Below, piece by piece: positions 11,234-27,861 of a stretch of 29,431 nucleotides of DNA (within the stretch, counting starts at the first letter, position 1; every line of letters starts with the position of its first letter). Position numbers and translations under genes: made by a program. The notes under the pieces were generated by a model. That model was not told the origin of the DNA. It searched no databases and saw only the letters and a list, made by a program, of their open reading frames with translations. This stretch comes from an archaeon (lineage in GTDB: Archaea; Asgardarchaeota; Thorarchaeia; Thorarchaeales; Thorarchaeaceae). The stretch lies in NCBI GenBank assembly GCA_024276825.1, contig JAJRWI010000002.1, positions 1-29,431 on the forward strand, given 5' to 3'.

Positions 11234-11749
11234 ATGAATATTTTATTGACTGGTCCCCCTCGAATTGGCAAGACAACAGTAATAAAACGAATTATCGAAA
11301 TAATTGGAATAAACGATACAATGGGCTTCTGGTCAGAAGAGATCAGGGAGCATGGGAAGCGGGTCGGATTTGGGATAATGACGACATTGGGAGAGTCTGG
11401 GATATTGGCTCATGTTAGTCTGAAGGAGGGACCGCGAGTTAGCAAGTATCATGTGAACGTTGCTGACATTAACCACATCATCGTTCCAGTCTTAAGAAGA
11501 GCGGTAAGATCTAACAAGATCATCATCATCGACGAAATAGCAAAAATGGAGCTTTTCTCCAAAGAGTTTGCTGATGCTGTAATTGAATGCTTGAACACAG
11601 GAAATGTGATTGGTACAATTCAACTAAGACGAGATCTATTCCTAGAACAGATACGCGGGCGACCTGATTGCATGATAATTAATGTGACTCATGCTAATCG
11701 AGATACTCTGCCAATGAAGATACTTGAGATAATTCAAAGGCATGAGTGA
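11234..11749 (+). CDS. Nucleoside-triphosphatase (THEP1/NTPCR family)
   Basis: Walker A 'LTGPPRIGKT', plus 'GFWSEEIREHGKRVGF', 'VSKYHV' and 'IIIDEIAKMELFS'. Confidence 0.9.
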   Translation: MNILLTGPPRIGKTTVIKRIIEIIGINDTMGFWSEEIREHGKRVGFGIMTTLGESGILAHVSLKEGPRVSKYHVNVADINHIIVPVLRRAVRSNKIIIIDEIAKMELFSKEFADAVIECLNTGNVIGTIQLRRDLFLEQIRGRPDCMIINVTHANRDTLPMKILEIIQRHE

Positions 11750-11753
11750 AAGT

Positions 11754-13541
11754 CTACCTTGAACGCGTTCTTGTCTTGAAGTAAATTACCGCAATCGCAA
11801 TGGATGATAATCCACCTAGAATCGCAGCACCAGCAATAAGGAGTGGTGGTGTTCTCTCGGGCAGCTGCGAGCTGATTGTGTAGTTAAACCATTGAGTCAC
11901 ATGTTCATTCTTTACAGATGAGTTATCAACAGCACGAAGTCTGAAGAACACGGTTTCACCATTGACAAACTCGCCAAGTTCTGCATTGTATATATTATCA
12001 AACTGCAGGGTCATATTTTTGGAATTAGGATTCTCCGGGTCATTTGTGTACCACTCGATAGTGATTGATGAAATATTGTTACGATCCCATACATATGCCT
12101 GCACTGTCAGATTGTTTGTTGAAACAGTGGTGAATGACTGTAAGACCCTCACCTGACTAATGGTTGGCAGATGAGCGTCTGGGGTGACCTCAACAGTTGT
12201 GATGAATATGGTAGTCTGATTGAAGTAATCAATCAAAGTCATGTTATAGATATAAGTGCCAACTGCAAGACCATCTACTGATACAACAAAATTCTGACCA
12301 CTCCAAGTTCCATTCATAATAATTGTTATATTGAGCCCATCATATCTTGTCAGATTGTATGTCTTAGGATTACTCTCATCAATCGTCCAGTTTATCTCAT
12401 AACCCGTATAGCCTTCCTCATATGTGATCTCATCTGTCGCATTGACCACTGGTGCCCTGATGTCTTCATAGACCGTAATGTTGACACTGTCAGTTGAATT
12501 ATGATCATACTCGTCAAACAGTATGATTGTGAATGTGTAGTTGCCTAAGTAGAGATTGGTCACATTAATCTGAATGTCTTGCCCTTTGGGATCGTCAAAG
12601 GACCAATCTGGCTGGCTGATATTAGCTGGTGGATGAGCCTGTCCAGGCGGGCCATATTCAGTGTCGTTAAAATGAACGATAACCCTGATAGAGTAGTTCT
12701 TTGGATTGCTATCATAGACATGCCATTTTAGCACATATGGCCCAGCACCAAACTCATAGGAGATGTCATCAGGAGAATCAACCACGGGATCTGTCAAGTC
12801 TTCACTGACTGTGACATTTACAGTGCTTGTTGAATTATGGCCAAGAGTGTCATTTACGAATAATGTATAGAGATATGAATGAGTGGCATTTAAACCATCA
12901 ATTCCAATTGATATGTTTCCTCCGGCCCAGTTCCCACTCTCAATCACTGTGAAGTTATTGCTCGGATAGTCAGAGAGTCTTGTGATATTGTAAAAGTCTG
13001 GATTGGTCTCATTGATCATCCATATTATTTCATGCCCAAAACTGCCAACCTCGTAAGTGTAATTAGCCGGTTCTTCCAAAACAATCCCATCTACTTCTAT
13101 AGTAATTATGGGGTTGGTTTCATCAGCAATCACTGTTACCATAACTGTGTCTGAAACGGACTCATTTTGCTTGTCAAAGACGACACAAGTGAACTCAAAG
13201 CTCACTGGGAGTGAATATGTCAGGTTCTCCTCGTAGAGATGATCAAGTTCCACAACAATCTCAGAACCATCCCAGTTCCCTGAGTCTATGATTTCACCAT
13301 CTCTCGAAACTGAATAGTTCAAGGGTTCATTGGAAGTGGCGTTCCATACAATCTTCTCTCCAAGACTACCATTTTCAAATGTCAAATCTGGTGGTGAGTT
13401 AATTGATGGAGCTGCAAGCTCGAAGTTATTGGGTGCTATAGTATTAGTTGCAAAATCTGCTAGTCCCACCATTGCAGGTGTCAAGAATAGCCAGAACATT
13501 AGAATTGCAATCGTCAGATGCTTTGTCTTAGTTAGCTCCAT
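11754..13541 (-). CDS. Membrane-anchored cell-surface glycoprotein with four Ig-like repeats and a C-terminal beta-sandwich domain
   Basis: Signal peptide (MELTKTKHLTIAILMFW...), repeats of 'P.I..P.D..YE.G..G..I.W...E.NP..Y.I', many sequons, and a C-terminal TM plus KTRTRSR tail. Likely ATG at 13541. Confidence 0.8.
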   Translation of the reverse strand: MELTKTKHLTIAILMFWLFLTPAMVGLADFATNTIAPNNFELAAPSINSPPDLTFENGSLGEKIVWNATSNEPLNYSVSRDGEIIDSGNWDGSEIVVELDHLYEENLTYSLPVSFEFTCVVFDKQNESVSDTVMVTVIADETNPIITIEVDGIVLEEPANYTYEVGSFGHEIIWMINETNPDFYNITRLSDYPSNNFTVIESGNWAGGNISIGIDGLNATHSYLYTLFVNDTLGHNSTSTVNVTVSEDLTDPVVDSPDDISYEFGAGPYVLKWHVYDSNPKNYSIRVIVHFNDTEYGPPGQAHPPANISQPDWSFDDPKGQDIQINVTNLYLGNYTFTIILFDEYDHNSTDSVNITVYEDIRAPVVNATDEITYEEGYTGYEINWTIDESNPKTYNLTRYDGLNITIIMNGTWSGQNFVVSVDGLAVGTYIYNMTLIDYFNQTTIFITTVEVTPDAHLPTISQVRVLQSFTTVSTNNLTVQAYVWDRNNISSITIEWYTNDPENPNSKNMTLQFDNIYNAELGEFVNGETVFFRLRAVDNSSVKNEHVTQWFNYTISSQLPERTPPLLIAGAAILGGLSSIAIAVIYFKTRTRSR

Positions 13542-13741
13542 TATGACCACACAACCAAATGGTTTATACACTATTCATTGGCGGTCGAACCATTCTCTTG
13601 GGTTTTATAGCTATCGGTATTTCAAATAATGAACTTTGCACACATCATCTATGGTTAAAAGAGCAAGCCTTGGCCATGTCTGCATACCAACAATATAGTG
13701 TTAAGAAGCCTCATGATATAATAAAGCAAAAGGTGTAACTA

Positions 13742-14674
13742 TTGCCAAAGGCTGCATTTGCAATATGGTGGGACGACCGTTTAGGACCCTCTCTTGGTCG
13801 AAGCTATCCACATATCGAACTTTCAGAAGAAGACATCCTAAACATCTTCATGGGTCATGGTCTAAACAGCGAGGCCAAAATTGGCTATACCAAGATACGA
13901 GCTGGTCTTGTAATTTCATACATGCAGGCCCCCACTTGTATTGGCATTCTGCTGGATGAGAATGATGACCCAGATGTGATAGAGAGAAACCTTCTACGAC
14001 TTGTCCCGTATATTGATATAACCTCAGATTCTTGGGATGATGAGATAAAGAAGGCTTATGAAACATTAGTTGAACTTATTCATGAAACCTCTGGAGAAGA
14101 GTTTCTATCGAAGCCTGAGGTCAAGAGTTTCATTCAAGAGATTAAGAACGGACATATTAAAGTGATTGCGCCAAAATACACCCTGCAAAGTATCCAACGA
14201 TACAAGATTGCGGAAGAGTTCTTTGGTAATGATCCCGATGAAGTTGTTAGAATCCTTCAAGATCTTGAGAGAGAGAATGTTGTTATCCCAAAGTCCTTTG
14301 GTAGGAGACTAGAATGCAGACAATGTGGTGATACTGAAGTTGCAATTGAGCTTCATTGTCCTCGCTGTGACTCACGCGACTTGCACAATGTCTTCACAGT
14401 ATTTTGTCCAAAATGCAGCGAACAGTTTCAGACAGTCATCATTGACGAACTCACTGAAGTGCGTTGCCAAAACTGCCATGAGGCCGTAAAAGTATCAGAA
14501 CTGTCTGTGATTGATGTTGAACCCCTATGCAATAATTGTGGAACTGCTTCTGATGAACCAAAGATTGTTTTGACCTGTGCAACATGTGGAAAGAAGCTTA
14601 AAGGAGCTGATCTCCTTGGAGGAACGGGTCTGGCATACTATCCTTCAAAGGAATACTTTGATTCGCCCCATTAA
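13742..14674 (+). CDS. uDENN/longin-like N-terminal domain fused to a TackOD1-like multi-CxxC metal-binding domain
   Basis: N-terminus 'AFAIWWDDRLGPSLGRSYP' fits the uDENN-type beta1-GP-beta2-P pattern. The C-terminal half has 'ILQDLERENVV' followed by CRQC, CPRC, CPKC, CQNC, CNNC and CATC. TTG start with AGGTG SD. Confidence 0.7.
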   Translation: MPKAAFAIWWDDRLGPSLGRSYPHIELSEEDILNIFMGHGLNSEAKIGYTKIRAGLVISYMQAPTCIGILLDENDDPDVIERNLLRLVPYIDITSDSWDDEIKKAYETLVELIHETSGEEFLSKPEVKSFIQEIKNGHIKVIAPKYTLQSIQRYKIAEEFFGNDPDEVVRILQDLERENVVIPKSFGRRLECRQCGDTEVAIELHCPRCDSRDLHNVFTVFCPKCSEQFQTVIIDELTEVRCQNCHEAVKVSELSVIDVEPLCNNCGTASDEPKIVLTCATCGKKLKGADLLGGTGLAYYPSKEYFDSPH

Positions 14675-14812
14675 AGTATATGAACTTGCAATAACACGTC
14701 TTTATGTTGCAGAGTCTGATTGCACTTGGAATCTATACCTGTGAGAGCTTTTTTTCCAAATGGCTTTACATCAATAGATCAGAACTGCAAAGGCTCCAAC
14801 TACAAGAATTCT

Positions 14813-16429
14813 CTACTGGCCATTGCTCTTTTTCAAGGCCTTTTTGACAACTTCTCTCGCAGACTCGATTAATTTCTTGGCCCGTGCCTCTCCAAGCCCT
14901 TCGACCTTCGATGCCAACCTCTTTGGCGTCTCTCCCGCCAGCTGTGCAGCTGAAGTATAGCCAGCATCGCTGAGTTTTGCTTCCAGAGCTGTCCCAACTC
15001 CTGGAATTCTGCGCAGGGGCAACATTTCGGTAAAGTCATCACCAAGAATATCATGAATCTCTTCGTCTGAAAGGTCTGAACTCACATCCAAGATTTCGAG
15101 CTGATGACGTACTGCTTCAAAGTCCTCTTGTCCCAGAAATGCATCAACTGTCCTTTCAACCTCTCTATCATCGAAATCAATCCGAAGGTCTTCCATCTCC
15201 ATCTCTCGTCCCACGATCTCAGGAAGATGTCCGCTTAGATACAATGCAATTAATGTAAGAAAGATTGCGGTCTCGCGACCAACTGATGCGATTATATTGG
15301 GGATTGACCAGCCCCAAGCACTCAGATCAACTGCCCAGAATAAGCACATATATCCGAGGAAAAAGAACCATACCGCTGTCAATCTTCTGCCTTTTGTCTT
15401 AGCCGAGCCCAGTTCAGTCCATATTAATAGTAGAACTAGGCCAAGAAAATATCCTTCGACACTACGTTCAAAAATGAGGAGAGGTGCTGCGTTTAATATC
15501 AATGTCCTTGATACAGGATCAATGTATAGAAAGACCGAACTAAATATGGTGAGGAGTGACATTAATAGAATCATTGTGCTGAATGATGTCTTTCTGCCTA
15601 TCCTATCAGCCATGATTCCAGCAATTGCTATGCCCCCAATGAAAAAGGCATATTCCCATAGACCAATATTTGCCTCTTGAGCCAGTGAAATAATGCTTGG
15701 ATCGCTAAGTATCAGAAGTTTTACATGAAAGTACCAAAGCATGTACGAAGCCATGATGCAAACTGTAGGCATGAAATATAACATGGACTTGCCCGAAGCA
15801 GCAAGAGGCACTTGAGTCAGTCTCCATGGCTTAACAGCGGCACTGACAATAATCAAAGCAACAATGGCAAGAGTTTCTGGAATTGGAATAATAAAGACAC
15901 TCAGTGGAATGCCACGACTCTCCATGGTGGGATAGAGGAGGGCCAGAAATACAGATAGTGCGAGAAATGAGACTGCCACTCTACCTCTGAATCTCACGAC
16001 AACTGTGCGACTCATTAAAACTGTAAGACTGGGGAGTGACAGGGCCAGTCCAAGAAATGCGTTAATCACGACAAGGTATTCAATGAATGGTGAGTACTGA
16101 TTTGGAGTTCCCATGGCCATGTATATGAACATGGTAATGGGAGCAAGGGCAGAACCCACAATGGCAAGATAAACTGGTCTGTTGATTCTATCAATCACAA
16201 AGCCCACAATTGGCAAGGCAATCGTTGATGCAAGCGCACCCACTCCTAACAATGGCATATGATCAACTATCACTGGCAGAAGTAGAACTCCCTGCGTGAC
16301 CCTTAGTATGTAATAGAAGCTCAATGCAATTGATGGGGAAAAGAGCATATATATCAAAGCAATCCTTGTTGGGAACTCTCTATACTCTAACAATACACTC
16401 ACCAAGGTTTCTTGAGCTAGTCCTAGCAA
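14813..16429 (-). CDS. MFS-fold membrane protein with an acidic linker and C-terminal tandem helix-hairpin-helix domain
   Basis: About 12 TM segments and MFS motif-A-like loops 'VGFVIDRINR' and 'AGIMADRIGRK'. C-terminus 'LRRIPGVGTALEAKLSDAGY...VEGLGEARAKKLIESAR' is HhH-type. Confidence 0.72.
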   Translation of the reverse strand: MLGLAQETLVSVLLEYREFPTRIALIYMLFSPSIALSFYYILRVTQGVLLLPVIVDHMPLLGVGALASTIALPIVGFVIDRINRPVYLAIVGSALAPITMFIYMAMGTPNQYSPFIEYLVVINAFLGLALSLPSLTVLMSRTVVVRFRGRVAVSFLALSVFLALLYPTMESRGIPLSVFIIPIPETLAIVALIIVSAAVKPWRLTQVPLAASGKSMLYFMPTVCIMASYMLWYFHVKLLILSDPSIISLAQEANIGLWEYAFFIGGIAIAGIMADRIGRKTSFSTMILLMSLLTIFSSVFLYIDPVSRTLILNAAPLLIFERSVEGYFLGLVLLLIWTELGSAKTKGRRLTAVWFFFLGYMCLFWAVDLSAWGWSIPNIIASVGRETAIFLTLIALYLSGHLPEIVGREMEMEDLRIDFDDREVERTVDAFLGQEDFEAVRHQLEILDVSSDLSDEEIHDILGDDFTEMLPLRRIPGVGTALEAKLSDAGYTSAAQLAGETPKRLASKVEGLGEARAKKLIESAREVVKKALKKSNGQ

Positions 16430-16464
16430 ATAAGATGATTTGGTTTTTATCCTTTGTCAGTTTC

Positions 16465-16493
16465 TTAACCTTAATTTACACACATAAGGTTAA
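16465..16493. promoter_or_regulatory. Perfect 9-bp inverted repeat in the divergent intergenic region (symmetric bidirectional promoter or operator)
   Basis: TTAACCTTA-N11-TAAGGTTAA, lying 36 nt from the MFS-HhH start and 48 nt from the longin gene start. Confidence 0.55.
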
Positions 16494-16540
16494 AGACCTA
16501 ACATCACCCAAAAAGCTCAGGGAATCTAGGAGTCACATCA

Positions 16541-17452
16541 ATGGTAGGTAGATTGAAAGTTCATGAGTTCATGATCATCTCGTCAGGCGGTGTTCCAGTA
16601 TTTCATTATGCTCTTAGTGAGTCCAAACGCCTTGACGAATTACTATCTGGCTTTCTAACCGCCATTACAAGCTTTGCATCCGAATTTGGCGAACGAAGTG
16701 TTCAGAGTCTTTCCTTTGAGGACTCGGAGATTCTATATGAACAGACTGAAGATGCAATTTTCATCTTCCTGGTCGAGAATCAAGCACCTGAGAGGATTCT
16801 GAGGATTGTCCTCCAGGAGCTCAGTATCAAATTCATAAAGCAATATGAACATGAACTCTCACTTAATGTTGCCTATGATGACATGTTCACTGACTTCACC
16901 AGCATTGTTAAGGAAGTTTTCGACTATTATGAGGGCGTCTTGATTCTTATCTCAAAGTTGAGTTCCTATGTTGTACCAGAAAAGGATGAGAATGCTCTTC
17001 AGCAGGTCACTGAACAAGCACCATTCCTTGATGAGTTTCATAGAGCTTTTGGCAATGAGGGTATTCGAGTGCTTGAAACGATTAATGGCAAGAAGACAAT
17101 AGAACAGCTAAGTGTAGACTTGAGCATGGAGGAAACCAAAGTCCGCGAAATCATCGAGTACTTGACAATCTGGGGAGTGCTAAGGATCTCGCAACTGTGT
17201 CCCAAGTTCGGAGCCGATAACGAGAGATTTGATGCATTTCTTGACTTGATTGGTCTTCCAAGCAAGGACTATCAATTACTCAAGAAAGCAAGGCCCTTGT
17301 GCACGGGTACACGTTCAATAACCGAAATAAGCGAACGTCTTAATGTTCCCGCTGATCGCATATATGAGGTATTAATGAAAGTTGGTGATGAAGTCAAGTG
17401 GAATATGGTTGAAGTGATTGGTATGCCTCCTTCAAGATTGCTTGCCATTTAG
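16541..17452 (+). CDS. Longin-like domain plus tandem winged-helix protein (paralog A)
   Basis: N-terminal 'MIISSGGVPVFHY...DELLSGFLTAITSFASEFG' fits the Asgard longin pattern. Two wHTH-like segments: 'INGKKTIEQLSVDLSM...IIEYLTIWGVL' and 'CTGTRSITEISERLNVP'. ATG with GGAG SD. Confidence 0.72.
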   Translation: MVGRLKVHEFMIISSGGVPVFHYALSESKRLDELLSGFLTAITSFASEFGERSVQSLSFEDSEILYEQTEDAIFIFLVENQAPERILRIVLQELSIKFIKQYEHELSLNVAYDDMFTDFTSIVKEVFDYYEGVLILISKLSSYVVPEKDENALQQVTEQAPFLDEFHRAFGNEGIRVLETINGKKTIEQLSVDLSMEETKVREIIEYLTIWGVLRISQLCPKFGADNERFDAFLDLIGLPSKDYQLLKKARPLCTGTRSITEISERLNVPADRIYEVLMKVGDEVKWNMVEVIGMPPSRLLAI

Positions 17453-17524
17453 TCGCCTTTTTTGCTTTCCTGCCATCTATTTATTAGTTAAAATTACTAT
17501 GAGTTTCTGCTGGAGACATCGATA

Positions 17525-18820
17525 TTGGTGAAAGAAATAGTTGTGATTCTTGATACCGGAATTCCACTTTTTCATTATGGAATCATTGGCGAGAGAAAGA
17601 TCGATGAGTTGGTATCAGGATTCCTTTCTGCGATGGGCTCATTTGCAGAGAGCATTGGCGGTGAACCAGTAAAAGTGATCTCTTTTGCAGAGAACAAACT
17701 TGTGTGGGTGAAAAAGGGCAATTTGTTCTTCATTGCCATGATATCTCAGAACGATAGTGAAGAAATATACTGGGTGATTTTGCAGGAGCTGGCGGATCAG
17801 TTTGTTGGAATGTATTATGAAGAATTAATGAAAGAATGGCAGGACCCCCGTATGTTTAGGCCCTTTGCTGAAGTCGTAGAACTCACACTCCAAAGATTTA
17901 ATGGTGTTCCTGGTCTTGCGCGACGATATAAGACTGCATTATTGCCAATAAATGACTTAAATCAAATCAAGAACGCTCTTGTTCACCTAGAAGATAACGA
18001 TTACATTTTGCGAGGTGCAGTACTTACTCAGGATGCATACATCATAGTTTCGACATTGAGAACTTACGAACTTGAAGCAATTCTTGATCTCTTTCCTACT
18101 ATAATGGAAGATAAAGAGAAGGCATGTCAAGGACTGTTGATAGTACATACAAGTCTTGATCCGGTCACCTCCTTCTTTGTAGTGAACATGAGGGAACAAT
18201 GCTTCTGTGTCTTTGTGGTGCACAAAAGTCTGGAAAACGACAAGTATCTTGAGATAATAAAGCCCTTTATCTCATTAGTGAAAAAGATCAATCTTTCATT
18301 GATAAAACGAGTTCATCCAATGATGAGCAAAGAAACATTGACTTTCTATGATTACGACCTTGTGGTTCCAAAAAGGACCATTACAGAGATGAAGGTAGAG
18401 ATACCAATTGTTCTAAAAGGTCTGACCGAAGAACATCTCGAGCAATCAATGAATATTATTGAACAACTTGAAGGCAATATCACAATTGCGGACCTTGAAG
18501 AACTCACGCACTATTCAAAAGATGCCATAACAGAAATTCTAGCATATTTAATCGCCAAGGACTTTGTGCAGATCTGCAAGATATATCCCATAATGCCTGA
18601 ACGGGATGATCGATTTTCAGCATATCTCGAACTAATCGGAATACCTAAGAAAGACTTTGACATTGTAGATATGATATGGAAATATTGTAATGGTAGTTAT
18701 TCAATCCAAGAGATATCAAATAAGACAGGTATCCCTGCATCAAGAATATTAGATGTTCTTCGTAAGCTGGGAAATCAAGTAAAATGGGAAACAGAAAGGG
18801 TGTTGAGTCGTGTCGGGTAA
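17525..18820 (+). CDS. Longin-like domain, roadblock-like domain and tandem winged-helix protein (paralog B)
   Basis: N-terminal 'VVILDTGIPLFHY...DELVSGFLSAMGSFAESIG'. Central insert 'LEDNDYILRGAVLTQDAYIIVS...SFFVVNMREQCFCVFVVHKS' has a roadblock/profilin-like pattern. C-terminus is clearly homologous to paralog A. TTG/GTG start with GGAG SD. Confidence 0.7.
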   Translation: MVKEIVVILDTGIPLFHYGIIGERKIDELVSGFLSAMGSFAESIGGEPVKVISFAENKLVWVKKGNLFFIAMISQNDSEEIYWVILQELADQFVGMYYEELMKEWQDPRMFRPFAEVVELTLQRFNGVPGLARRYKTALLPINDLNQIKNALVHLEDNDYILRGAVLTQDAYIIVSTLRTYELEAILDLFPTIMEDKEKACQGLLIVHTSLDPVTSFFVVNMREQCFCVFVVHKSLENDKYLEIIKPFISLVKKINLSLIKRVHPMMSKETLTFYDYDLVVPKRTITEMKVEIPIVLKGLTEEHLEQSMNIIEQLEGNITIADLEELTHYSKDAITEILAYLIAKDFVQICKIYPIMPERDDRFSAYLELIGIPKKDFDIVDMIWKYCNGSYSIQEISNKTGIPASRILDVLRKLGNQVKWETERVLSRVG

Positions 18821-19562
18821 AATAGTCAGCATTCATAGTTTTAGAGGCGGAACGGGCAAAAGCAATATTGCAGCCAATTTGGCAGCGATTGCTGCCCTTG
18901 ATGGAAAACGTGTGGCAGTTATAGACACTGATGTAGCAAGTCCAGGTATACATGTGATTTTTGGCTTGGGTCGCGAAAAGATTGAGCATACACTAAACGA
19001 TTATCTTAGGGGAGAGTGCGAGATCACTGATGCATGTATTGATATGACTTCGCGTCTTGGCATTAAATCAGGAAAGCTCTTTCTCATCCCAAGCTCAATG
19101 TCAGCAACAGACATCACAAGGATTCTACGAGAAGGCTATGAAGTAAGTGATCTGAAGAATGGATTTAATGAGATAATAAAGGCTAGGAATCTGGACTACT
19201 TGATTATCGATACCCATCCCGGTCTTGATAGGGAAACACTATTGTCCATGGCAACAGCTGATTACCTGTTTGTCGTAGCAAGGGTCGATCAGCAAGACCT
19301 TCTGGGCACAGCTGCAACTCTAAGTGTTGCAAGAAAACTGCAGGTCCCTGAGATTAGAATAGTAATAAACAAGAAGCCTTCAATCTATGAGGATGATAAG
19401 ATTATCAAGACTGTGGAAGAAAAATTCAAGGCCAAGGTAGTTTCTGTAATTCCATTATTGCCCCTCTTAATTGAAGCAGGGTCCAGATATATCATTGTCC
19501 TAAAACACCCAGATAACCTGTTTACCCGATGTATTGAAGATATCTATCAAATCATGAAATAG
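18810..19562 (+). CDS. MinD/ParA family (SIMIBI) ATPase
   Basis: Deviant Walker A 'SFRGGTGKS', 'VIDTDVASPG', 'LFLIPSS', 'DYLIIDTHPG' and 'VINK'. GTG start overlaps the upstream gene by 11 nt. Confidence 0.9.
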   Translation: MSGKIVSIHSFRGGTGKSNIAANLAAIAALDGKRVAVIDTDVASPGIHVIFGLGREKIEHTLNDYLRGECEITDACIDMTSRLGIKSGKLFLIPSSMSATDITRILREGYEVSDLKNGFNEIIKARNLDYLIIDTHPGLDRETLLSMATADYLFVVARVDQQDLLGTAATLSVARKLQVPEIRIVINKKPSIYEDDKIIKTVEEKFKAKVVSVIPLLPLLIEAGSRYIIVLKHPDNLFTRCIEDIYQIMK

Positions 19563-19756
19563 GATTAAATACAAGAAGCAGCGCAAGTATTAGAATAATA
19601 AGGCATAGTAGCAGACATAAGATCAGCAACATGTCTTCTGAAGATTGGCGACGTGACACTTTTATCAGATAATACAACCATATTAAATCAGATAAGCCCT
19701 TTGCTAGTTGAACATTGTATCGGCAATTTTGCTCTACTGCGATGGAGGCCGACCTT

Positions 19757-20194
19757 TTGGAAATCGAAGTCAGACTTGCAACTGCTCGCGATAGAAAAGC
19801 GCTTGATGAGTTCTATGCTCGAGAGGGGATGAGTTTCAAGACCATTTCAACTCGAGCCGCGTGCTATGGTTCTACAGAAACGATGTTCATTGTCGCAGCA
19901 ATGGATGATATTGTAGTAGCAGCAATGAAGCTTGATATCGCACGAGACCCGTCTCTTGGAAAAGTCGGGTACATCCAGTATTTTGAAATTGAAGACAAGC
20001 TTGAGAGCACCGATCTTGGCCAACGCATGCTCGACAAGGTCATAGAGATTGCTAAAGATAAGAATCTCAGTGCACTTGATACAATGGTCAAAGAAGACCG
20101 TGATGACCTCATCTCAATTTGCCTTGACAAGCTCTTTGAGATTGACCACAAAGAAGTCTATCTTCGCAGAAAGTTCAAGACCTCGATATTCTAA
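19757..20194 (+). CDS. GNAT-fold protein with a degenerate acetyl-CoA-binding motif
   Basis: 'IEVRLATARD', 'MFIVAAMDDIVVAAM', 'VGYIQYFEIED...LGQRMLDKVIEIAK'. Likely TTG start at 19757 after GGAGG; ATG 19742 is an alternative. Confidence 0.72.
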   Translation: MEIEVRLATARDRKALDEFYAREGMSFKTISTRAACYGSTETMFIVAAMDDIVVAAMKLDIARDPSLGKVGYIQYFEIEDKLESTDLGQRMLDKVIEIAKDKNLSALDTMVKEDRDDLISICLDKLFEIDHKEVYLRRKFKTSIF

Positions 20195-20510
20195 GAAACC
20201 TCCACCCTTGTAATCTTATCGACTTCAACATTTCTTAAATTCTTAAGAAAGGCCAATAATATGTCGTTTAAGACATTGTTTGTGAACTTGTTCAATGGAA
20301 CCTTTTTGCCATTCACTATCAGTTCGATTTTCGGCAATTTGAATCACCATTCTTGAAGGACACATGCCTAATTTTCTATCTTGTGGAATGAGCAACCGCT
20401 TTTTTTATACTGGTTTTCTTATGCTTAGCGCACTCCGAATGCCTTTTATATGGGGCACTTTCAAAACCACAACAGGACAGATGACCATCAAACTAGTGAG
20501 GATAATAGAG

Positions 20511-22460
20511 ATGGCTCAAGCAATTTCAGGAATATTGTCACAGAGATCAGCCGATGGTGAACCGTACGAGCCAATCGGCAAGGTCTCAAGTATTGGTGCT
20601 ATTTTAGGAATAATCGCAGCGATAATCGGATTGGTGCTGAGTGGCGGGTACTCTTTGATTCCAATGCCCTCAATTGGAGCTTTGGTCTTGAAGAACTCTA
20701 GTCACTATTTTGCTTCAGCAATCTTTCTCGCATTGCTGTCAATCGGTCTGCTGATTCAAGCAATTGGCTCCAAGAACCTACGAAACTACCTTGGTTCTGG
20801 TCTACCAAATATCATTCTTATTACTGCGATAATCGGCCTGATATCTGCGTTCTTTGTGATTGACGGAGGACTGAATTGGCATAAGCCACATGAAGTCATT
20901 GCATATGTGGTTCACAGTATGTCATTAGGCGCATTTTTTGTAGTCACATGGCAGATAACATCAGTTATCTACATTGACTCGGACAAATCGATAATTGGAT
21001 TTATTGCTGGTATGTTCAATGCATTGTTCGTGCCAATTCTTGCCATTGGACAGGCTATGGTCTTCATTGATGCATCAAATGTCATGATTGTCTACATTGC
21101 ATATCTTATACTACTTATTGGACAGATCTTCACATTTCTCTATTGGAGAGCTCCTATCAATAATCTTCGTGAATATGTTCGCAGTACTAGATTTGCAAAA
21201 ATAGGATTCTCCATAACTGGCCTAATTGTATTTTTCCTCGGATTATTTGCCATATTCAGTTCAACCGCCATTAAGGAAGGCTTCGCAATCTGGTTCCCAT
21301 GGGACACAATGGTATCCACGACAGAGTTTCTCACCCAGCCAGCAATTATCTATGGATTATTGGCACTGATGATTTACTGGGTGTTGTTGGCCCCACGACT
21401 TGGCGCTAGAGAGCAGAAGGAAACGCAATTAGGCGAAGACATTGTGAAGGGTGGTGCCAAGTGGTTCATGATATTCCTTGGATTTTTTGGAATCTTTGCC
21501 ACAAGCCAAGCTGGCACGATGGTTGAAAATGTTATTGGTGGCTGGGGCGGCTTCATGGTGCTCTGCCCTGCAGCAATAATATTTATCATGGGGGCACTAT
21601 ATGCCGAACAGACTGATATTGTCACAGGCCTGCCAATGGTTCTTGCAGCTATTTTCCTTATGGTCCATCCATTTGTTCTCTCACAGTTTATCCTCATCCC
21701 ATGGACACTGATTATTATTAGCCAGATCTTCTTGCTTTTTGAAGTAATAAAAAGAGGTCTTGGACAGTTCTCACAGCCACAACTTACCGTTTTTGTGACA
21801 GTCATTAGCTCATTTGTGTTTGTGCTTTTCATTCTTGGGCTATTTGGAAGTGGTCCTGCTGCAATTTGGCCTGTGAATCGCTGGTTCCCAATTGCATTGT
21901 TTTCAGACATACCTATTGATGTCCAGATACCCACAATACTCGCACTGCCAATAGCCGCACTTCTTATTCGAAATGTGGCGCTGGTTGGTTTTGCAAAAGG
22001 TCGCGGACAAGTTGGAGCGGGTGTGCTTGGAGGAATGTCAATACTGTTTGCATTCTTGATACCAATGATTGGTGATCCATCAGCCTCAATAACCCACAAG
22101 GCCCTAACTGCAGCCTCAATAATGCTGGCATTATATGCAGTTAGCTTTGTGCTCGTACTTTCAATAAATATGAATCTTGCACATGATGTCGAGAACACGG
22201 GCAATCCATATGAAGGCATGCTGGTCAGAATGAGTTCTATTGTAGGAGTTATTCTGGGTGCTATCATTGCAACAATTGTGATGATAGTATTCTCTGGCTT
22301 CCCCTCTCCAACTGACATTGGCATGATGCTGATGCTCTTGGTGACCCTGATTGTGAGCCTAGAGATTCTCAACTTCATTAGTTGGGCAATCATTGGCGTC
22401 AGACTGGGAATGCTGAGAAGCGGTTGGAGCTTCAAGCGAGTCCAGTTTACAGAACGTTAA
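20511..22460 (+). CDS. Large polytopic membrane protein of unknown function (~18 TM)
   Basis: Continuously hydrophobic ORF. Likely ATG at 20511 after GTGAGG, with TATA-like TTTTATA near 20444-20450. Confidence 0.7.
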   Translation: MAQAISGILSQRSADGEPYEPIGKVSSIGAILGIIAAIIGLVLSGGYSLIPMPSIGALVLKNSSHYFASAIFLALLSIGLLIQAIGSKNLRNYLGSGLPNIILITAIIGLISAFFVIDGGLNWHKPHEVIAYVVHSMSLGAFFVVTWQITSVIYIDSDKSIIGFIAGMFNALFVPILAIGQAMVFIDASNVMIVYIAYLILLIGQIFTFLYWRAPINNLREYVRSTRFAKIGFSITGLIVFFLGLFAIFSSTAIKEGFAIWFPWDTMVSTTEFLTQPAIIYGLLALMIYWVLLAPRLGAREQKETQLGEDIVKGGAKWFMIFLGFFGIFATSQAGTMVENVIGGWGGFMVLCPAAIIFIMGALYAEQTDIVTGLPMVLAAIFLMVHPFVLSQFILIPWTLIIISQIFLLFEVIKRGLGQFSQPQLTVFVTVISSFVFVLFILGLFGSGPAAIWPVNRWFPIALFSDIPIDVQIPTILALPIAALLIRNVALVGFAKGRGQVGAGVLGGMSILFAFLIPMIGDPSASITHKALTAASIMLALYAVSFVLVLSINMNLAHDVENTGNPYEGMLVRMSSIVGVILGAIIATIVMIVFSGFPSPTDIGMMLMLLVTLIVSLEILNFISWAIIGVRLGMLRSGWSFKRVQFTER

Positions 22461-25385: not shown

Positions 25386-26300
25386 ATGTCGCGAGACCTG
25401 TTTTCACGTTATACGCAGCTGTATCAAAAGTCAAGAGCTCGGGAGATCATTCCTGAGGGTCCCTTTGTAAGACAACTTACAGATGTCCCCCGCTTAGGTC
25501 TTGATGTCAGTGTCTTCTTCAAAGCAAAACGTGTGAAGAATCCAAGACAGGTCTATCTTGGAAGGCCAATACCAATAGAGGTTGCCAAGCGAACCGGCTT
25601 TCTCGAAACATCTGATAATACCTTCTTTTCAAGAGATTTGATCACCAACATGAAAGGCCTTCAATATCTACGTGTGGTCATAGCAGCAGGAAGGCATTTG
25701 ACTGAAATCCCTGAGCGCGTTCAGTTCCTGAAGCAATGTCAGAGAATAATTGATGTGATTGCGAGAAAGGCACGAAATGTGGCACATCAAGGTGATTTTG
25801 AAGCATTCAGGTTTGATAAGAAGATCTATACACTTGAGGAGTATCTGAAGAAACACACCAAGCTTGATGAGGTGGGAATTGAAGCGGCCTCAATCTCGTT
25901 TATTGAAGCAAGGCCAGACTATATCTACATGCCCGATGGCGAGATCATTGTATTCAATAATGACTACAGTGTGCCTCATGGTGTCTATTATTTCGCTGGT
26001 GGCATTGGATATTCATTTGACAGACAAGAAGGGGCGGCAACTGAGGAGAGGGTGTTCCGTGCGGCTACCGATCTGAGTTCATTTGGCATTGATGATGCAT
26101 ATCTTGAGAGTATGATGCTTAGAGTCACTGAGGACTTTCAAACACGCGTTCATTCCGTTATTTTTGCTGATGTCTGGAAAAAAGCTGGAAAGCGACCAAT
26201 TGGTGTCAATTTCAGGAAAAATCTGTTTATCAAAGCTGAGCCTTCCAGTGAGATCTGGCTGGGAATCTTTGAGATATATCTTGCCTCACCTAAAGCATAA
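25386..26300 (+). CDS. Hypothetical soluble protein (304 aa)
   Basis: Long ORF with ordinary composition, divergent from tbp. No motif recognised. Confidence 0.7.
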   Translation: MSRDLFSRYTQLYQKSRAREIIPEGPFVRQLTDVPRLGLDVSVFFKAKRVKNPRQVYLGRPIPIEVAKRTGFLETSDNTFFSRDLITNMKGLQYLRVVIAAGRHLTEIPERVQFLKQCQRIIDVIARKARNVAHQGDFEAFRFDKKIYTLEEYLKKHTKLDEVGIEAASISFIEARPDYIYMPDGEIIVFNNDYSVPHGVYYFAGGIGYSFDRQEGAATEERVFRAATDLSSFGIDDAYLESMMLRVTEDFQTRVHSVIFADVWKKAGKRPIGVNFRKNLFIKAEPSSEIWLGIFEIYLASPKA

Positions 26301-27861
26301 TTACATCAAATGAGTCAATCACAGTGAACACTGCCCTGAATGCATAAATACGAAATGTGTATGTTATGGGAACCGTTTCTGATTGCCCAAGAGCATTTCT
26401 TATGGTAGACAGCGCACTATCTCCAAATGATGTTAGAATAAAAGGAAGTGATTCCAGAACAATACAAGAAACGCCATTACCATATGCAGCCTTGATATCC
26501 TTAATCAATACATCTAGGTTTCCATAAACCGAACTCTGTCGCCCCTCGTTGTCTGTTGCATTTCCTGCAAGCCCCAATCTTAACTCGTAGTCCTCATCTC
26601 CTGTGTTTCCAACTGATCGCGAATATGAGTAAACGAGATATTCGCCAACATCGTTAATCATCTCGAGTGAGAAACGGGTTCTACTGGCATAGTATTGGAC
26701 CTTGTCCCAGAGCGACATACTGTCATAGGTGACACCACAATACTTCATAAAGAGAGTATCGCCATCCTGAATATCATCAAGAACAAAAGCATCAACCACA
26801 ACTCCAGCTAACAATCCATTATTATGGGCCTGATTGACAATCTCTTTAGTCATCTCAATTATGATTGACTGGTTGATATTGTCAGAAATACTACGGATAG
26901 TTATGGAAAAGCCAGTGAGGTCAATGCTTCTTGCACTACTCAATAGACTCTGCCATTCAGTTCGAGTCAGTGTGAGATCAAAATAAATGATACTTGGCAG
27001 ATTTAATACGTTCATACTCTGTGTGAGATTAACAAAGATTGTCGTGTACTCAGCAAATGCATTAAAGGTCCTGACGAAATCTGCTGTTGTATTTCGATAA
27101 ATATCATGGACTGCACTGAAAACAATATTATACTCGATAGTAGTTTTATTCAAGGCAGTCAGCCAGCTTTGAAGTCTGTCCATCGATGTTTGCGAATAAC
27201 CATCAATCCGAAAGCTGAGACCGAACTCATTATTCTGAAGCGAGTTTAATGTCTGATTGTCTGGGGCGTGGTCGAGATAAGGGAAATCCCAATTATACAA
27301 TGGCATGTCTAAAAAAATGGAGGATGAACTGCTATATTCAACTGCCGCTATTTGCGTCTGGCCCATGATTAGTATCGAAGCAGGAAAAAGCAGACCAATC
27401 AGGTTTAGAACGACAAGATAGACCACACCTTTTTTGCCCAATGTCTTGATGCTAGTTTTTGGTCGAAGTCTTCCGAGTATCACCATAAGGCTACAGGCAA
27501 GCAGGTTCATGGCAAACATGAGGTAGAATAGATGGACCAGTCTAACAAGGAGTAAATAAAACACACACATGATCAGTGTGATTACGACTGGCATGAGAGC
27601 TGACCTGTTGAGATAATAATCTCTGATTATCAATGGCAAGAAGACAAGCAAGGGGATAACATAAAACGCGATTGGCAATGAGTCAAGAAGAGCAACTCCA
27701 ATCATTGTCAAGCGAACCAATATTGAAATAACGGCATATATGATTATAACTATATTCAATGAGAGAATTGTAACTGTGAGATAATGTATTATTAACCCAC
27801 TGTTTGATGATTCAATTCTTTCTTTCAATGCCTGTCTTCGGTCAAGAAATTGGTCTAGCAC
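26290..27861 (-). CDS. Hypothetical membrane protein: ~5 N-terminal TM helices plus a large soluble alpha/beta domain
   Basis: Hydrophobic N-terminal ~170 aa, then alternating beta/alpha segments ('IIYFDLT', 'LAGVVVD', 'ELRLGLAG', 'CIVLES') with several sequons. GTG start. Confidence 0.7.
   Translation of the reverse strand: MLDQFLDRRQALKERIESSNSGLIIHYLTVTILSLNIVIIIYAVISILVRLTMIGVALLDSLPIAFYVIPLLVFLPLIIRDYYLNRSALMPVVITLIMCVFYLLLVRLVHLFYLMFAMNLLACSLMVILGRLRPKTSIKTLGKKGVVYLVVLNLIGLLFPASILIMGQTQIAAVEYSSSSSIFLDMPLYNWDFPYLDHAPDNQTLNSLQNNEFGLSFRIDGYSQTSMDRLQSWLTALNKTTIEYNIVFSAVHDIYRNTTADFVRTFNAFAEYTTIFVNLTQSMNVLNLPSIIYFDLTLTRTEWQSLLSSARSIDLTGFSITIRSISDNINQSIIIEMTKEIVNQAHNNGLLAGVVVDAFVLDDIQDGDTLFMKYCGVTYDSMSLWDKVQYYASRTRFSLEMINDVGEYLVYSYSRSVGNTGDEDYELRLGLAGNATDNEGRQSSVYGNLDVLIKDIKAAYGNGVSCIVLESLPFILTSFGDSALSTIRNALGQSETVPITYTFRIYAFRAVFTVIDSFDVIML

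Follow-up and report, generated by a model that had tools for sequence, protein, structure and literature searches.

Conserved association of longin-winged-helix proteins, an Arg-type ParA/MinD ATPase and an MFS-type membrane protein in Thorarchaeia and one further class of Asgard archaea

To our knowledge, the functions of the 'eukaryotic signature' longin and roadblock proteins of Asgard archaea are almost wholly unknown. A gene cluster in the Thorarchaeaceae genome GCA_024276825.1 raises the question of which partners such proteins have, and of which genes in the cluster belong together. We analyzed a window of 29,431 nucleotides (positions 1-29,431 of the forward strand of contig JAJRWI010000002.1), in which six adjoining open reading frames (ORFs) lie within positions 13742-20194 (Table 1). 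They encode a TackOD1 protein, a membrane protein of the major facilitator superfamily (MFS) type with C-terminal helix-hairpin-helix (HhH) motifs, two paralogous longin and winged-helix proteins (A and B), a ParA/MinD-type ATPase (ParA) and a product of 159 amino acids (aa). The initial annotation of this DNA took the six contiguous genes to be one undescribed system, in which a heterodimer of A and B would regulate the ATPase and the MFS-fold protein would serve at the membrane. All six ORFs are present. We found that the core of the association is smaller, consisting of the MFS-HhH gene and, divergent to it, A and/or B followed by ParA, and that this link is old and robust. Overall, the gene association is well supported and was foreshadowed by two computational studies.

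We compared the locus with those of other Asgard genomes, grouped into families. The family of the window itself, Thorarchaeaceae, is labelled f1; f2 is a further family of the same order; f14 is a family in another Asgard class that carries the NCBI submitter label 'Candidatus Hodarchaeota'; and f17-f19 are families labelled Helarchaeota. Full-length orthologs of B (profile search, E < 1e-90) were found only in f1, f2 and f14. Of the 77 genomes listed with both B and ParA, 74 have ParA as the next gene after B in the same orientation; these genomes span the three families and two classes. In two of the three exceptions an insertion of 1.2-3.3 kb separates the genes, and in the other they are on different contigs. 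Conservation of the neighborhood, which the initial annotation had named as a check, is thus seen for the longin/roadblock-winged-helix gene and ParA. The two genes overlap or are less than 50 nt apart in f1 and f2; in f14 the distance is 34-104 nt in nearly every genome. In the window, ParA starts with a GTG and shares its first 11 nt with the end of B, an overlap that had been noted before, and the N-terminus that follows from this start (MSGKI) is kept in the orthologs. Judging from gene order and overlap, A/B and ParA are most likely co-transcribed and translationally coupled. Insertions of other genes were seen at individual loci. One genome (G322; L015:7587-8540, + strand) has an ADP-ribosylglycohydrolase gene (E = 3e-72) between B and ParA, and another (G320; L001) has a DUF362 gene between A and B and an MTD gene between the TackOD1 and MFS genes.

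The f1 neighborhood is collinear well beyond the six genes, and therefore synteny within f1 cannot define the unit. The flanks of the f14 loci are otherwise unrelated (a restriction-modification methylase, TFIIB, a β-lactamase-fold gene), and there a diverged MFS-HhH gene is again divergent to B. Orthologs of the MFS-HhH gene are confined to f1, f2 and f14; in f1 and f14 they lie next to A/B in divergent orientation. The MFS-HhH gene thus travels with A/B-ParA in these two families, in keeping with the link that the initial annotation drew from the divergent arrangement of the window, where the MFS-HhH gene and A are on opposite strands and share an intergenic region of 111 nt. In f2, where the flanks are different as well, of the module genes just B and ParA stay together. 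The proposal of a six-gene unit did not hold up. The TackOD1 gene was found at f1 loci only, and the orthologs of the 159-aa gene are 51-57% identical at f1 loci; at the f14 and f2 loci the TackOD1 gene is not present and no 159-aa ortholog follows ParA. These two genes are probably mere neighbors of the module. Five Thorarchaeaceae genomes that are without the core are also without both of them, and we considered whether this co-absence could mark out a six-gene unit. We rejected it, because flanking genes are absent in part of the same genomes: three of the five are also without the flanking 698-aa gene, and for the 605-aa gene only paralogous PKD matches were found.

The core does not need both paralogs. 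B alone is beside ParA at f14 and f2 loci, and in several thorarchaeal genomes, one of them a single contig, B is absent and A directly precedes ParA (L012, L013). The paralogs of the proposed A/B heterodimer exist, but because these loci carry only A or only B, an obligate heterodimer is not supported.

Table 1. Features of the cluster, with positions in the window
Feature	Position	Strand	Basis or remark
Longin, helical/winged-helix linker and Cys-rich TackOD1 zinc ribbon	13742-14674	+	Pfam, AF2, VIA
MFS-fold membrane protein with acidic linker and basic C-terminal (HhH)2	14813-16429	-	Core member in f1 and f14
Divergent promoter region with inverted repeat, 111 nt	16430-16540	.	Between MFS-HhH gene and A
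Paralog A, longin and two winged helices, 303 aa	16541-17452	+	Pfam, paralog alignment
Paralog B, longin, roadblock and two winged helices, 431 aa	17525-18820	+	AF2, VIA, Foldseek
ParA/MinD-type ATPase, Arg for signature Lys	18810-19562	+	Pfam, motif alignment
159-aa ORF, weak GNAT-like match	19715-20194	+	Acetyltransf_1 below cutoff

The ATPase is the most distinctive member of the core. It is a MinD/ParA ATPase by Pfam (AAA_31, E = 9e-19), and among solved structures its best matches are MinD proteins of archaea and bacteria (E = 7e-15 to 3e-11), with a minD_arch score of 87.2 bits against a cutoff of 201.75. In its Walker A motif (HSFRGGTGKSN), Arg (R12) replaces the signature Lys. This Arg is invariant in 14 orthologs, down to 46% identity, as are the motifs DTD-x2-SPG-x-H (S44-P45-G46) and DTHPG. 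The nearest Asgard ParA paralogs (33-35% identity) retain the Lys. By these sequence features the Arg-type ATPase is a distinct ParA/MinD clade, and it is single-copy. Its identity to the orthologs is 77-85% in f1, 59% in f2, 55-58% in f14 and 47-52% in f17-f19; at the same f1 loci it is much more conserved than the other five genes (41-62%). It shares the ATPase fold with MinD. Unlike MinD, it carries Arg at the signature position and stops after the ATPase core, with no C-terminal membrane-targeting extension of the amphipathic-helix kind, and there is no MinC or MinE in the window.

Paralogs A and B resemble each other at both ends, with 30% identity over 149 aa at the N-termini (E = 1e-23) and 34% identity over 115 aa at the C-termini (E = 1e-21). 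In the AlphaFold2 (AF2) model of B (pLDDT 79.5), residues 1-128 form a longin domain (VIA Z 14.5, root-mean-square deviation (rmsd) 2.6 Å) and residues 138-259 a roadblock domain that matches an Asgard Roadblock (VIA Z 12.2, rmsd 2.5 Å) as well as MglB and Rag C-terminal domains (Z 11.8-11.9). Two winged helices follow the roadblock. A is without the roadblock insert. Structure models thus bear out the three longin-type N-termini read earlier in A, B and the TackOD1 gene product, and they place the roadblock that had been assigned to the pair as an insert in B. Whole-chain Foldseek searches with B gave Fuzzy/Inturned, Mon1/Ccz1, BLOC-3 and NPRL2/NPRL3 as the top matches (E = 2e-9 to 1e-6), those to NPRL2/3 ranging from 1.8e-7 to 3e-4. 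In the Pfam scan of A and B there was no NPR2 or NPR3 match at E ≤ 0.1. HTH_NPRL3 (E = 0.073), Intu_longin_1 and Fuz_longin_1 gave weak, below-cutoff matches, and there were weak matches of the TrmB/MarR type. Orthologs of A are 49-61% identical, and those of B are 44-57% identical at f1 loci. B has 138 close homologs, nearly all labelled Thorarchaeota, and a search with its C-terminus recovered only 20 representative clusters among 1.84 billion proteins. The distant relatives of this C-terminus have mixed neighbors (CBS, an NTPase_1 gene, or nothing recognizable). The linker between the longin and the roadblock of B (residues 125-140, window 17897-17944) carries a basic motif, G-x-P-G-L-A-R-R-Y-K-T-x-L-L-P, that is near-invariant in f1; we considered it as a possible ParA-stimulating peptide. 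The GLARRYKT part is degenerate in f2 and f14 and absent from A, and model confidence is low there.

The MFS-HhH protein has about 12 hydrophobic segments, with motif A (G-x-x-x-D-R-x-x-R) in both halves (GFVIDRINR and GIMADRIGRK). In MFS proteins, 12 transmembrane segments (TMs) are divided into two halves, and motif A is found in the loops TM2-3 and TM8-9. Language-model features of the protein score 0.98 to MFS clusters. Because it has no Pfam MFS_1 match at E ≤ 0.1 despite these motifs and the feature score, we regard it as a divergent member of the superfamily. The C-terminus, which follows an acidic linker, is RadA N-terminal-like (HHH_5, E = 1.6e-9) and basic (pI 9.8). The intergenic region between the MFS-HhH gene and A contains a perfect 9-nt inverted repeat, TTAACCTTA-N11-TAAGGTTAA, at 16465-16493, whose right arm overlaps a TTAAAG TATA-like box. 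A box of the TTAAAG type upstream of A/B is conserved across orthologous loci. Neither L001-L012 nor the f14 loci conserve the palindrome, which is present in the window alone; the idea that it is a conserved element was therefore rejected.

Relatives of A and B in other lineages have a different partner. Outside the core families, matches to the B profile in the phylum are mostly isolated longin domains. A few Loki and Hel genomes, however, encode full-length A-like proteins with a longin and two winged helices, whose homology extends over 333 columns (hhalign, E = 3e-5) with clear identity of N- and C-terminal motifs. A Ras-family GTPase gene (PF00071, E ~1e-46) is directly beside the A-like gene, on the same strand, in 8 of the 8 copies inspected, from seven genomes. 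In a Loki-type genome (G230; L028:4136-7811, - strand) a Ras-like GTPase of 179 aa and a longin-double-winged-helix protein of 361 or 366 aa form a unit that is repeated in tandem, the two units being 82% identical at the protein level. The genome of the window has its own GTPase-linked counterpart of A/B-ParA on contig C50 (L029:4732-6907, - strand), where the gene for a 427-aa B-related protein comes first, ahead of a 116-aa ORF and the gene for a Ras-family GTPase of 173 aa, all on one strand. The 427-aa protein consists of a longin and one winged helix and is weakly related to B (E ~1e-3; hhalign E = 6e-5). No small GTPase gene was found on the window's contig; the 28 Ras-family matches of the genome are all on other contigs. 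Two weak Gtr1_RagA-type matches, both on other contigs, are better explained as Ras family.

By this comparison, the distribution of partners suggests that the NTPase was swapped between lineages around a conserved platform family. The idea that an ATPase stands here in place of a GTPase would fit with homologs that are paired with small GTPases elsewhere. The initial annotation had also named linkage of A/B orthologs to a small GTPase as an observation that would speak against it; such linkage was found for distant homologs, not for orthologs.

The cluster had been considered undescribed, and this part of the initial annotation has to be withdrawn, since both halves of the cluster and the pairing of ParA with a longin-like-wHTH (winged helix-turn-helix) protein are covered by two earlier studies. 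Liu et al. (2020; bioRxiv 10.1101/2020.10.19.343400) described an NPRL2-like family of Thorarchaeota and, in addition, NPRL2-like longins fused to two-component-type domains, which is the architecture of the TackOD1 gene product; they make no mention of ParA/MinD. A 2026 preprint (10.64898/2026.10.19.760177) defined a ParA assemblage, ConB2, on two sequence features: Arg replaces the Walker A Lys, and a PG motif stands downstream of 'sensor-1'. As part of ConB2 it described a mainly archaeal 'ParA-wHTH system' that comprises ParA and at least one wHTH gene, sometimes with a fused profilin/longin-like domain, and proposed, as a computational prediction, that the system coats invader DNA and has an immune role. 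The same preprint noted a bacterial ParA that displaces MglA next to MglB, and found profilin-longin-like domains associated with both TRAFAC and SIMIBI NTPases. Asgard archaea are not named in its text.

The locus in the window resembles ParA-wHTH/ConB2 in several respects. Its ParA has the Arg for the signature Lys and has a PG motif within DTD-x2-SPG (equating the DTD box with 'sensor-1' is our own reading), and the adjacent A and B each have a longin and, C-terminal to it, two winged helices. It differs in that the thorarchaeal partner is a longin-(roadblock)-double-winged-helix protein that is NPRL2/3-like and often a paralog pair, with MFS-(HhH)2 in addition. The thorarchaeal module is also inherited vertically with a highly conserved ParA, an ill fit to an immune role, and it has neither fast partner evolution nor the sporadic spread expected of defense. 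The Helarchaeota-labelled orthologs of ParA (L009, L010, L011) have another context: a TPR protein, a helical protein of 110-137 aa, ParA, a helix and wHTH protein of about 200 aa, and an ADP-forming acetyl-CoA-synthetase-like gene. The small proteins beside these ParA orthologs showed no detectable relation to A/B. In the described family the wHTH is the PwHTH1 domain, which has a long N-terminal helix; profile comparison of the C-termini of A/B with the Hel helix-wHTH proteins gave only a weak E of 0.03. By this analogy the Hel loci look like the simplest ParA-wHTH form and the thorarchaeal loci like a longin-elaborated form. Four features go beyond the described system: the conserved MFS-(HhH)2 partner, the insert of roadblock fold in B, the pairing of paralogs, and relatives that are linked to GTPases.

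Several known systems are built from similar platforms. NPRL2 and NPRL3 (GATOR1/SEACIT), which act on Rag/Gtr GTPases together with DEPDC5, are likewise a paralog pair with an N-terminal longin, an extra middle domain in the larger paralog and C-terminal winged helices. A and B differ from them in sequence family and in having a SIMIBI ATPase rather than a Rag GTPase as the conserved partner gene. The tri-longin RabGEFs (Mon1-Ccz1, Fuzzy-Inturned, BLOC-3) are paralog heterodimers that share with B the order of a longin and a roadblock-like domain, but B has two winged helices where they have a third longin/roadblock, A has the longin only, the Pfam scores are below the cutoffs, and there is no Rab-like gene nearby in Thorarchaeia. 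MglB-MglA is also a roadblock-fold platform encoded beside its NTPase, and the middle domain of B matches MglB with a Z of 11.8; the NTPase in the window is a ParA rather than a Ras-like GTPase. The case of MglB next to a ParA (10.64898/2026.10.19.760177) is bacterial and pairs a PriB1-clade ParA with a single-domain MglB, whereas here the ATPase is of the Arg-type clade and the platform has several domains.

We favor the reading that the three-part, vertically inherited module is a cellular positioning or signalling switch, in which A/B would partner the Arg-type ParA at a membrane site given by the MFS protein. We hold this reading tentatively, with chances that we would put slightly short of even. 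The ATPase would act as an ATP-dependent dimerization switch, and the longin/roadblock platform of A/B may be its partner (regulator, effector or adaptor), by analogy with the longin-winged-helix proteins and Ras-like GTPases of other Asgard lineages. The winged helices and the HhH tail, which would be cytoplasmic, might give further contacts with protein or DNA, and the output would be positioning or signalling rather than defense. We infer the physical binding, the direction of regulation, the engagement of membrane and DNA and the biological output. A cellular role is preferred over defense because the module is single-copy and in a fixed place among housekeeping genes (in the window, a class-II aminoacyl-tRNA synthetase gene, TBP and GDPD), because the ATPase is unusually conserved, and because B evolves no faster than its neighbors, no effector gene is present and PADLOC gave no significant match. 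Several observations weigh against the favored reading. Some nearly complete Thorarchaeaceae genomes are without the whole region (G335, 97%; G370, 92%), and the module is therefore dispensable. The Hel orthologs of ParA are not beside longin-winged-helix genes, so that the ATPase does not need A/B. In f2, the MFS-HhH homolog is on a contig other than that of B-ParA. Nor do the winged-helix domains have a clearly basic character (median pI 6.1 and 6.8). Each component of the module is able to work in other company.

It is also conceivable that the locus works against selfish elements, as proposed for ParA-wHTH (ConB2) systems; the wHTH/longin-like protein would then recognize invader DNA, and ParA would multimerize to coat or contain it. 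Both ConB2 motifs of ParA, the fused profilin/longin-like domain of the described system (10.64898/2026.10.19.760177), the helix-wHTH protein beside the Hel orthologs, as in the simplest form, and the loss of the module from some close relatives are all consistent with such a role. We nevertheless regard it as fairly unlikely, given a single-copy ATPase of 77-85% identity whose place in the chromosome is constant, between collinear housekeeping genes, throughout the family, a B whose identity range (44-57%) is like that of its neighbors (41-62%), and the lack of an effector gene or significant PADLOC match. The described system does not include the MFS partner, no clear homology was seen between the winged helices of A/B and the wHTH of the Hel proteins (E = 0.03), and the text of the preprint does not name Asgard archaea. 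Somewhat less probable still is the possibility that A/B regulate, in the manner of GATOR1 or a RabGEF, a small GTPase whose gene is elsewhere, and that ParA is merely co-transcribed. The structural likeness of B to NPRL2/3 and the tri-longin RabGEFs, the Ras-family genes adjoining the Loki and Hel homologs and the 28 Ras-family matches in the genome would all be expected under this explanation, but none of those GTPase genes is on the window's contig, ParA has kept its place next to B in 74 of the 77 genomes, the two reading frames overlapping in the window, and there is no Pfam match to NPR2 or NPR3 at E ≤ 0.1.

Two further explanations place the function of A/B on DNA. A and B could be winged-helix transcription factors that control the divergent MFS transporter, with the longin as a sensor. 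A divergent regulator-transporter layout is common, the shared promoter of the window has the 9-nt perfect palindrome, and the TrmB/MarR-type matches, although weak, point the same way. Because the palindrome is not conserved at orthologous loci, the first winged helix of B (wH1) is acidic (pI 4.3), f2 keeps B-ParA without the MFS gene, and the Loki homologs pair with GTPases rather than transporters, we find this explanation decidedly doubtful. A ParABS-like DNA partition system with A/B as centromere-binding adaptors would account for a ParA-type ATPase beside winged-helix proteins and for the basic (HhH)2 tail. It would not account for an adaptor that is upstream of ParA and not basic, for a conserved partner that is a membrane protein, or for complete-looking relatives that lose the module, and no repeat array or centromere-like site was found within 13000-21000; we consider partition very improbable.

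The module provides a concrete and conserved set of candidate partners, an ATPase and a membrane protein, for Asgard longin/roadblock proteins. Should the platform regulate the ParA-type ATPase, longin/roadblock proteins would be general partners of NTPase switches and not just regulators of small GTPases, and the GTPase-linked and ATPase-linked versions would document a swap of partner. The result would also bear on the immune role proposed for Arg-type ParA-wHTH systems. A more specific version of the switch, which we regard as speculative and improbable, is that an ancestral Ras-partnering longin-winged-helix platform was re-wired in Thorarchaeia and the second class to control a dimerizing SIMIBI ATPase, and that together with an MFS 'transceptor' it forms a membrane switch for nutrient sensing or positioning. 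If true, this arrangement of transporter, longin/roadblock scaffold and NTPase dimer would follow the same logic as the eukaryotic transporter-Ragulator/GATOR-Rag circuit.

The TackOD1 gene upstream of the core (Pfam TackOD1, E = 2e-15) encodes the third longin of the cluster. In its AF2 model (pLDDT 80), residues 4-90 have the longin topology (β-β-α-β-β-β-α). The best VIA match of residues 1-117 is a solved Lokiarchaeota longin (Z 11.2, rmsd 2.6 Å, 114 residues aligned), and the next best are GAP-type longins, with NPRL2 in GATOR1 (Z 10.7, rmsd 2.9 Å, 117 aligned) followed by FNIP2/FLCN, Npr2 and Lst4 (Z 9.3-9.8). The longin is of the NPRL2/FLCN type, and its motif W-D-D-x-L-G-P is invariant. 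The protein has 151 homologs, all Thor-type. Profile comparison of this N-terminus with the longin of A/B gave no signal (E = 0.14), and the fold assignment rests on the model. At the other end of the cluster, the 159-aa ORF has an Acetyltransf_1 (GNAT) match (E = 1.1e-3) below the cutoff. Its actual start is probably the ATG at 19742, because the orthologs align from residue 14-17.

Other genes were noted around the cluster. A THEP1-type NTPase_1 gene (E = 4.5e-44) is about 2 kb upstream, at 11234-11749 (+). An NTPase_1 gene is likewise found immediately upstream of the gene for P0395 (locus L064), a protein distantly related to the B C-terminus; this may be a coincidence. Three large ORFs (698, 304 and 523 aa), at 20364-22460 (+) and 25386-27861, are without a Pfam match. 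The 698-aa gene is syntenic across Thorarchaeaceae, with a 658-aa ortholog in L003/L004.

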